From assembly GCF_013122565.1 (NCBI RefSeq), contig NZ_CP053258.1: a stretch of DNA of 64,000 nt. One strand, written 5' to 3'. Below the pieces are notes generated by a model that was given only the letters and a program-made list of their open reading frames with translations, had not been told where the DNA came from and did no database searches. The stretch comes from Escherichia coli. Its GTDB lineage: Bacteria > Pseudomonadota > Gammaproteobacteria > Enterobacterales > Enterobacteriaceae. Of the stretch, positions 30,188 to 30,370 are shown one piece after another. The translations under genes were made by a program, and so were the position numbers. The first letter of the stretch is position 1; each line of letters begins with the position of its first letter.

Positions 30188-30370
30188 TCATGGCAGATGT
30201 TTATTCCCATCTAAAATGGCATCAACGGGAAAGTAAGTAATGTGTTTATTGTTGTTTTTCTCATTTATTTTATCGCCATGGTTATTTTTTAAATCAACCG
30301 GGGCTTCCTCATGATATTTCCTGGTTAACTCTTCAGGCGTAAAAGAAGCGTTTTTTCCGTTTATGTTCAT
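30188..30370 (-). CDS. candidate small ORF (60 aa) between the chaperone and major translocator genes
   Basis: ATG-initiated ORF filling the gap, weak ribosome-binding site; no known counterpart recalled in sicA-sipB or ipgC-ipaB operons. Confidence 0.25.
   Translation of the reverse strand: MNINGKNASFTPEELTRKYHEEAPVDLKNNHGDKINEKNNNKHITYFPVDAILDGNKHLP

Follow-up and report, generated by a model that had tools for sequence, protein, structure and literature searches.

A commonly frameshifted 60-codon open reading frame between eicA and eipB in the eip (selC-B) island of Escherichia coli

Introduction

Description of the eip locus of Escherichia coli is reportedly to be credited to Ren et al. 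2004 and Sheikh et al. 2006. In EAEC 042, the eip (selC-B) island comprises eicA, eipB, eipC, eipD, eilA and eaeX/air, and the published accounts count these six eip genes and do not mention the open reading frame (ORF) described here (PMC7058095, PMC11068852, PMC4210603). According to reviews, expression of the eip genes in strain 042 is EilA-dependent (PMC11068852, PMC4210603).

The gene order chaperone, SctE, IpaC/SipC-like protein and tip protein is shared between the eip operon and the SPI-1/Mxi-Spa type III secretion system (T3SS) operons, and the genes flanking the chaperone-translocator junction are homologous, EicA being 42 % identical to IpgC and 41 % identical to SicA of the Salmonella-plasmid T3SS. 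In Shigella, ipgC and ipaB are separated by a gap of 5 nt, in the SPI-1-like operon of a Salmonella plasmid sicA and sctE overlap by 8 nt, and in Providencia the chaperone and translocator genes are 2 nt apart. These junctions are so short that they leave no room for an ORF, in agreement with an original prediction, made from the sequence examined here, which knew of no equivalent gene in the Salmonella or Shigella operons. A short ORF just upstream of a regulated gene is found in tnaCAB, where TnaC is conserved only near its C-terminus and ends in Pro-UGA.

Here, we examine an ORF of 60 codons that lies between eicA and eipB in a 64,000 nt stretch of E. coli contig NZ_CP053258.1 (assembly GCF_013122565.1); this whole stretch is referred to as the window, and all coordinates are those of the window unless another sequence is named.

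Results

Location of the ORF and its annotation

As predicted, an ATG-started ORF of 60 codons, running from ATG to TGA, is found between a chaperone gene and a SipB-like gene and on the strand of both (Table 1). The gap between the two flanking genes had been put at 190 bp but measures 247 nt (30133..30379), of which the ORF occupies 74 %. The predicted product is rich in Lys, Asn and Glu. The region is 100 % identical to that of E. coli PapM-32-1, in which the gene order is selC, setC, yicL, nlpA, yicS, chaperone, ORF, SipB-like, hypothetical, IpaD/SipD-like, eilA and air. The eicA product scores 112.2 bits against TIGR02552 (cutoff 104.8), the eipB product 40.1 against Pfam T3SSipB (PF16535, cutoff 31) and the tip protein of the operon 118.6 against PF06511 (cutoff 25), and a chaperone, a SipB/IpaB-type translocator and an IpaD/SipD tip protein are therefore present in the order seen in SPI-1/Mxi-Spa-type translocator operons. 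The locus is the E. coli selC-B eip island and the ORF lies inside the eicA-eipBCD operon.

Table 1. Position of the ORF, its parts and the genes that flank it, together with the corresponding junction of a Yersinia plasmid
Feature	Coordinates	Strand	Details
eicA (flank)	30380..30877	minus	SycD/LcrH class II T3SS chaperone, 165 aa, upstream of ORF
Spacer, eicA TGA to ORF ATG	30371..30379	minus	9 nt; ORF frame is that of eicA
60-codon ORF	30188..30370	minus	ATG 30370..30368, TGA 30190..30188; product MNINGKNASFTPEELTRKYHEEAPVDLKNNHGDKINEKNNNKHITYFPVDAILDGNKHLP; RefSeq hypothetical protein WP_001024520.1
First 45 codons of ORF	30236..30370	minus	near-neutral rate
A6 tract	30285..30290	minus	ORF nt 81-86, codons 27-29; two frameshift alleles
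Conserved block	30179..30237	minus	-105..-47 from eipB ATG; codon 45 third base, codons 46-60 (YFPVDAILDGNKHLP), stop, 9 nt beyond
Spacer, ORF stop to eipB ATG	30133..30187	minus	55 nt; holds strong eipB Shine-Dalgarno AAGGAGGTG
eipB (flank)	28351..30132	minus	SipB/IpaB-like translocator, 593 aa, downstream of ORF
Yersinia frederiksenii plasmid (NZ_MT039225.1) junction	L066 4502..4822		321 nt gap

The 321-nt region around the ORF is present in 733 of 5,426 complete E. coli genomes. The ORF is already known as a RefSeq hypothetical protein or pseudogene: WP_001024520.1 (and WP_001024899.1), called by PGAP in several hundred complete E. coli genomes, is identical to it in sequence and coordinates, though the entry, a 'hypothetical protein', names no function or family and cites no evidence, and many genomes have it marked as 'frameshifted'.

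Elsewhere in strain 042, ShET2/EspL2-family, EspY4 and other 'type III effector' genes were seen near tnaCAB (L073 33285..35450 and 44994..50000). They sit near dnaA and tnaA, approximately 65-85 kb from the eip island.

Search for homologues

The ORF product had no match in Pfam, NCBIfam or PDB, the sole Pfam hit at E <=1 being DUF5053 (E = 0.3). A word-indexed search of 5.8 billion proteins returned nine clusters, all of them E. coli-type alleles with 78-96 % identity and some of them truncated, and a HMMER profile search of 1.84 billion representatives added to the E. coli alleles only low-complexity matches to long repetitive proteins. When 100,044 species genomes (one per species) were scanned with EipB, a scan that reaches only close EipB relatives, a single locus was recovered. 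This locus (L004, JAIJJM010000039.1) is on a MAG contig labelled 'Collinsella sp.' that carries yicS-eicA-eipBCD-eilA and, given its E. coli-like flanks, is almost certainly mis-binned Escherichia. The best 120 matches listed in a protein search with EipB were E. coli variants only. Homologues of the ORF were found neither beyond the species nor at the same position in related operons, and on these searches it appears to be an orphan restricted to the E. coli lineage.

One alternative on which this bears is that the ORF encodes a genuine small accessory protein of eip/ETT2, e.g. a substrate for secretion or a protein that interacts with EicA or EipB, with the C-terminal YFPVDAILDGNKHLP as its functional part. 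The want of homologues elsewhere and of the gene in the sister operons argues against such a protein, which we consider unlikely. Nor was a PxLxxP motif seen in the ORF by inspection; this motif is said to be the chaperone-binding motif in the IpgC-IpaB and PcrH-PopD structures, where class II chaperones bind it in IpaB and PopD. Residues 62-67 of EipB, PMLAPP (29941..29958), fit PxLxxP, again by inspection only.

The closest non-E. coli match to EicA in the plasmid collection was the chaperone of the Y. frederiksenii plasmid (51.5 % identical). The gap that follows it (Table 1), for which the incomplete PLSDB gene table has no entry, contains a TTG-initiated ORF of 107 codons overlapping the stop of the chaperone gene. 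As a candidate homologue, this Yersinia ORF was rejected as unrelated (BLASTP E = 15), and sequence sharing was limited to an identical stretch of 14 nt, AGGAAATATCATGA, between the 3' end of the Yersinia chaperone gene and codons 16-21 of the E. coli ORF. A long spacer that contains only an unrelated TTG ORF would also fit the idea that the E. coli ORF arose by pure chance in an AT-rich non-coding operon spacer and was never translated, its 3' block serving only as a DNA or RNA element for eipB; this second alternative is in our opinion improbable, for reasons given below.

Three of the PLSDB records (NZ_CP141089.1, NZ_CP134663.1 and NZ_OL790696.1) are 'plasmids' of 4.8-4.9 Mb that are clearly E. 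coli chromosomes, and two include a further SycD-like chaperone with 49 % identity to EicA, which is possibly the ETT2 chaperone.

Loss of the reading frame

Conservation of the frame in homologous loci, the check suggested in the original prediction, largely failed. Two frameshift alleles affect the A6 tract, and translation would stop after 34 aa in the A5 allele and after 29 aa in the A7 allele. They lie on different haplotype backgrounds and are therefore independent events; the A7 background also exists in an A6 version. Queries with exact 99-nt haplotypes found the A5 allele in 145 and the A7 allele in 82 of the approximately 733 complete genomes that carry the region and these are lower bounds, which together amount to at least 227/733 or at least 31 % of carriers. 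A metagenome set was retrieved using a 30-nt pattern at the start of eipB, and among the 56 informative loci (58 retrieved) the ORF was disrupted in 23 (41 %), by A5 in 16, A7 in 6 and IS1 in one. An intact frame is, hence, not a general property of the carriers, and EAEC 042, the strain that defines the locus, carries the A5 allele.

The neighbouring genes are not affected. PGAP tags the A5 and A7 copies as 'frameshifted' and eicA, eipB, eipC, eipD and eilA as full length, and all five were intact in the ten frameshift loci that were fully covered (eight metagenome contigs and two genomes). No other reading frame of the operon is commonly disrupted, and the frequent loss of the ORF's frame next to intact neighbours argues against a required gene. 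The same observation, that at least 31 % of the genomes including strain 042 have a frameshift and all five neighbours are intact, counts against an accessory protein unless loss alleles are tolerated within the known mutational attrition of ETT2, and it would be expected of a chance ORF.

Approximately 69 % of carriers nonetheless have an intact ORF, among them the most divergent allele group (approximately 12 % nucleotide divergence). In one metagenome contig (L070), the A5 haplotype has also lost 5 nt from an ATAAA-ATAAA repeat, which brings the ORF back into frame, and this second deletion, though a single anecdotal case, favours a protein product.

Two metagenome contigs have unusual sequences upstream of eipB. 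In OBYK01000890.1, at approximately 80 nt upstream of eipB, an IS1-like end (…GGAGTCATTACC) stands in place of all sequence upstream of codon 52 of the ORF, an independent disruption of both the ORF and the eicA-eipB linkage. In QRFC01025604.1, the exact 30-nt eipB start pattern is preceded by wholly unrelated sequence and the contig is possibly a chimeric metagenome assembly.

Sequence evolution of the ORF and its neighbours

When computed over 30 distinct haplotypes, piN/piS was 0.07 for eicA and 0.10 for the first 300 codons of eipB. The corresponding value was 0.74 for all 60 codons of the ORF and 0.80 for codons 1-45, and the out-of-frame controls for the ORF region gave 0.40 and 1.55. 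For the deepest pair of alleles, that of the window and that of strain N96, omega was 0.05 for eicA and 0.06 for the 5' part of eipB, values that point to strong purifying selection on these two genes. In the same pair, pN over ORF codons 1-45 was 0.135 versus a flanking pS of 0.14-0.15, and the 55-nt spacer after the ORF included 6 differences. As piN/piS over codons 1-45 is 0.80 and their pN is close to the pS of the neighbouring genes, the first three quarters of the ORF appear to evolve neutrally. Neutral change over the 45 N-terminal codons would not be expected of an accessory protein and, together with the frequent loss of the frame, is consistent with a chance ORF.

The remaining quarter lies in a 59-nt conserved block (Table 1) which, in the deepest allele pair, includes only 2 differences. 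Codons 46-60 have no nonsynonymous and two synonymous differences in this pair and, over all alleles, five of the six changes in codons 46-60 and the stop are silent (four synonymous and one TGA-to-TAA); with a silent fraction among transitions of 0.375, the probability of this is approximately 0.03. The last 15 codons have no fixed amino acid change. Depletion of nonsynonymous changes is suggested for this 3' part and is not seen in codons 1-45. This silent pattern supports an accessory protein with a functional C-terminus, and it counts against a chance ORF. On these comparisons the block may reflect either residual constraint on the peptide or a cis-acting element for eipB. Mosaic recombination could also be the source of the low local divergence in the block, because the alleles of eipB and of eipC fall into sharply divergent classes.

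The eip locus was found to be mosaic across eipC (27208..28338) and eipB (L004 and L063-L065). For EipC there are two strongly different classes of allele, of 376 aa and 383 aa, and the EipB classes have approximately 98 % and approximately 84-89 % identity, with the divergence concentrated in the C-terminal half. Over the whole of eipB, pS was 0.275 and omega 0.35, compared to 0.15 and 0.06 for the first 300 codons. The A5 and A7 alleles for which eipC could be read were all found with the 383-aa EipC class.

Regulatory elements in the spacer and the 3' block

Within the block, a hairpin AGATG-N8-CATCT is flanked by TGCCAT repeats. However, the spacer gave no Rfam match at E <=1 and its fold z-score was -1.93, so that neither a known RNA family nor folding beyond that of shuffled sequences was detected. 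A sigma-70-like promoter was not found on the gene strand of the spacer, the sole site there being on the opposite strand, and the number of such sites in the whole region (5 found versus 3.7 expected) is at background level. The lack of a gene-strand promoter and of an Rfam match in the spacer counts against a block that would function purely as a DNA or RNA element within a chance ORF. In favour of such an element, the 15-nt block motif GATGGGAATAAACAT (30198..30212) recurs as GATGGGCATAAAAAT (13/15 identity; 30953..30969, minus strand) approximately 90 nt upstream of the eicA ATG. A motif GATGGG(C/A)ATAAA(A/C)AT is thus seen at similar distances upstream of the eicA and eipB starts, and is either a site for a shared regulator or a coincidence. 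We regard the recurrence as a lead of doubtful significance.

A further alternative, suggested by likeness to other systems and in our judgement very unlikely, is that the ORF is an upstream ORF encoding a leader or arrest peptide, like TnaC or SecM, in which translation of the ORF or pausing at the conserved ...HLP-UGA would control eipB, and that the A-tract frameshifts are heritable switches. The ORF is short, on the same transcript as eipB and immediately upstream of it, and its variable N-terminus, conserved last 15 codons and Pro-UGA end would all suit a leader peptide. Against this, the ORF has no match to Pfam Tna_leader or any other leader peptide and falls into no TnaC or SecM family or arrest-motif group, its stop is 55 nt from the ATG of eipB, which has a very strong Shine-Dalgarno (SD) sequence of its own, and the frameshift alleles, with which the mechanism would be lost, are common and are also found in strain 042, for which EilA-dependent eip expression is reported. 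Pairing of the 3' part of the ORF with the eipB initiation region is also no better than that of shuffled sequences (-21.1 versus a shuffled null of -22.8 +/- 3.3, not significant).

A 12-bp pairing between codons 47-51 and positions +6..+21 of eipB, with an anti-SD stem, was considered and rejected as evidence, as the duplex is no better than shuffles. The anti-SD of this predicted pairing is not conserved in the divergent allele.

Translation signals and coding-like statistics

The ribosome-binding site of the ORF had been described as weak, and this was confirmed by the best anti-SD duplex, -4.8 kcal/mol for the ORF versus -8.7 for eicA, -12.6 for eipB, -11.9 for eipD and -5.8 for eipC. A weak SD would fit a chance ORF better than an accessory protein, though with an ATG 9 nt past the eicA stop coupled translation would be permitted. 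As the ORF is in the frame of eicA, fusion of the two by selenocysteine incorporation or read-through was considered, and it was rejected because the UGA is not followed by a SECIS-like hairpin.

An ORF of this length is more than chance would readily provide. When the spacer was shuffled 20,000 times with its dinucleotides preserved, 0.7 % of the sequences had an ATG ORF of at least 60 codons on the sense strand, or 1.5 % if any start codon was allowed, and the other two frames of the spacer include 6 and 9 stops. Scored with the codon table of the eip genes, the ORF reaches 10.0 bits, compared to 17.4 +/- 5.3 for windows of real eip genes and, for stop-free shuffles, -4.2 +/- 6.0 (mononucleotide, p = 0.007) or -1.3 +/- 5.7 (dinucleotide, p = 0.027). 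Both the length (p = 0.007-0.015) and the codon usage (p = 0.027) are, hence, coding-like, although the coding signals are each modest (p approximately 0.01-0.03) and some of the test windows were picked after the data had been inspected. Taken with the silent pattern in the last 15 codons, they support a coding origin of the ORF as read from its sequence. They exceed what is expected of a chance ORF and are points in favour of an accessory protein. The AF2 model of the product (mean pLDDT 54, pTM 0.19) shows no confident fold, and the peptide is likely to be disordered; this low-confidence model does not help the case for an accessory protein.

Discussion

The reading of the ORF that we prefer, though we give it only about an even chance of being correct, is that it is a lineage-restricted orphan small coding sequence which is dispensable or decaying and is not kept by selection for its protein. 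The intact ORF would probably be translated at a low level by ribosomes that re-initiate 9 nt past the eicA stop. Its first 45 codons change at a neutral pace, and frame loss has occurred repeatedly, both through slippage at the internal A6 tract and through IS1 insertion. The ORF would be dispensable for the operon, in which the neighbouring eip genes are kept by strong purifying selection. Some observations do not sit well with a dispensable ORF, namely the approximately 69 % of carriers in which it is intact, the last 15 codons without a fixed amino acid change and the restored frame in L070, and these would fit a conditionally useful peptide.

The original prediction left three options, a genuine small protein, a leader peptide or a chance ORF. 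The first is unlikely in the sense of a required gene, given frame loss beside intact neighbours, and pure chance is also not what best accounts for the length, the codon usage and the silent changes in the last 15 codons. In its most far-reaching form, the second option would have a leader or arrest peptide, YFPVDAILDGNKHLP-UGA, pausing ribosomes and tuning eipB translation or transcript survival, with A5, A6 and A7 as inherited settings by which the eip translocon would be turned on or off in E. coli populations in nature. This form, which is built on likeness to known arrest peptides, we consider highly improbable.

A seventh ORF is part of the eip operon; it varies between strains and is missing from the gene lists in the literature. 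The practical value of this is small, the ORF being of minor interest for the annotation of a cryptic T3SS island of debated function. However, a record of the A5, A6 and A7 alleles, and of the broken copy in reference strain 042, is a useful by-product, and in tests of eip/ETT2 function the allele of the strain used should be known. If the peptide or its translation did affect production of EipB, which is unlikely on the present evidence, the A-tract alleles would provide a natural genetic handle on a cryptic T3SS.

Comparison with known systems

The likeness to TnaC of tnaCAB, namely a short upstream ORF, C-terminal conservation and a Pro-UGA end, serves as a lead only. The two do not match as sequence families and the Trp/Asp spacing differs. 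Furthermore, the ORF examined here is 55 nt from a downstream start that has a strong SD of its own, and it is frameshifted in a third of strains.

The eip locus of EAEC 042 has the same gene order as the locus in the window, yicS-eicA-ORF-eipB-eipC-eipD-eilA-air, and is likewise beside nlpA/yicL/selC. The difference between them is in the ORF, which is an A5 frameshift annotated by PGAP as a pseudogene in strain 042 and the intact A6 version in the window.
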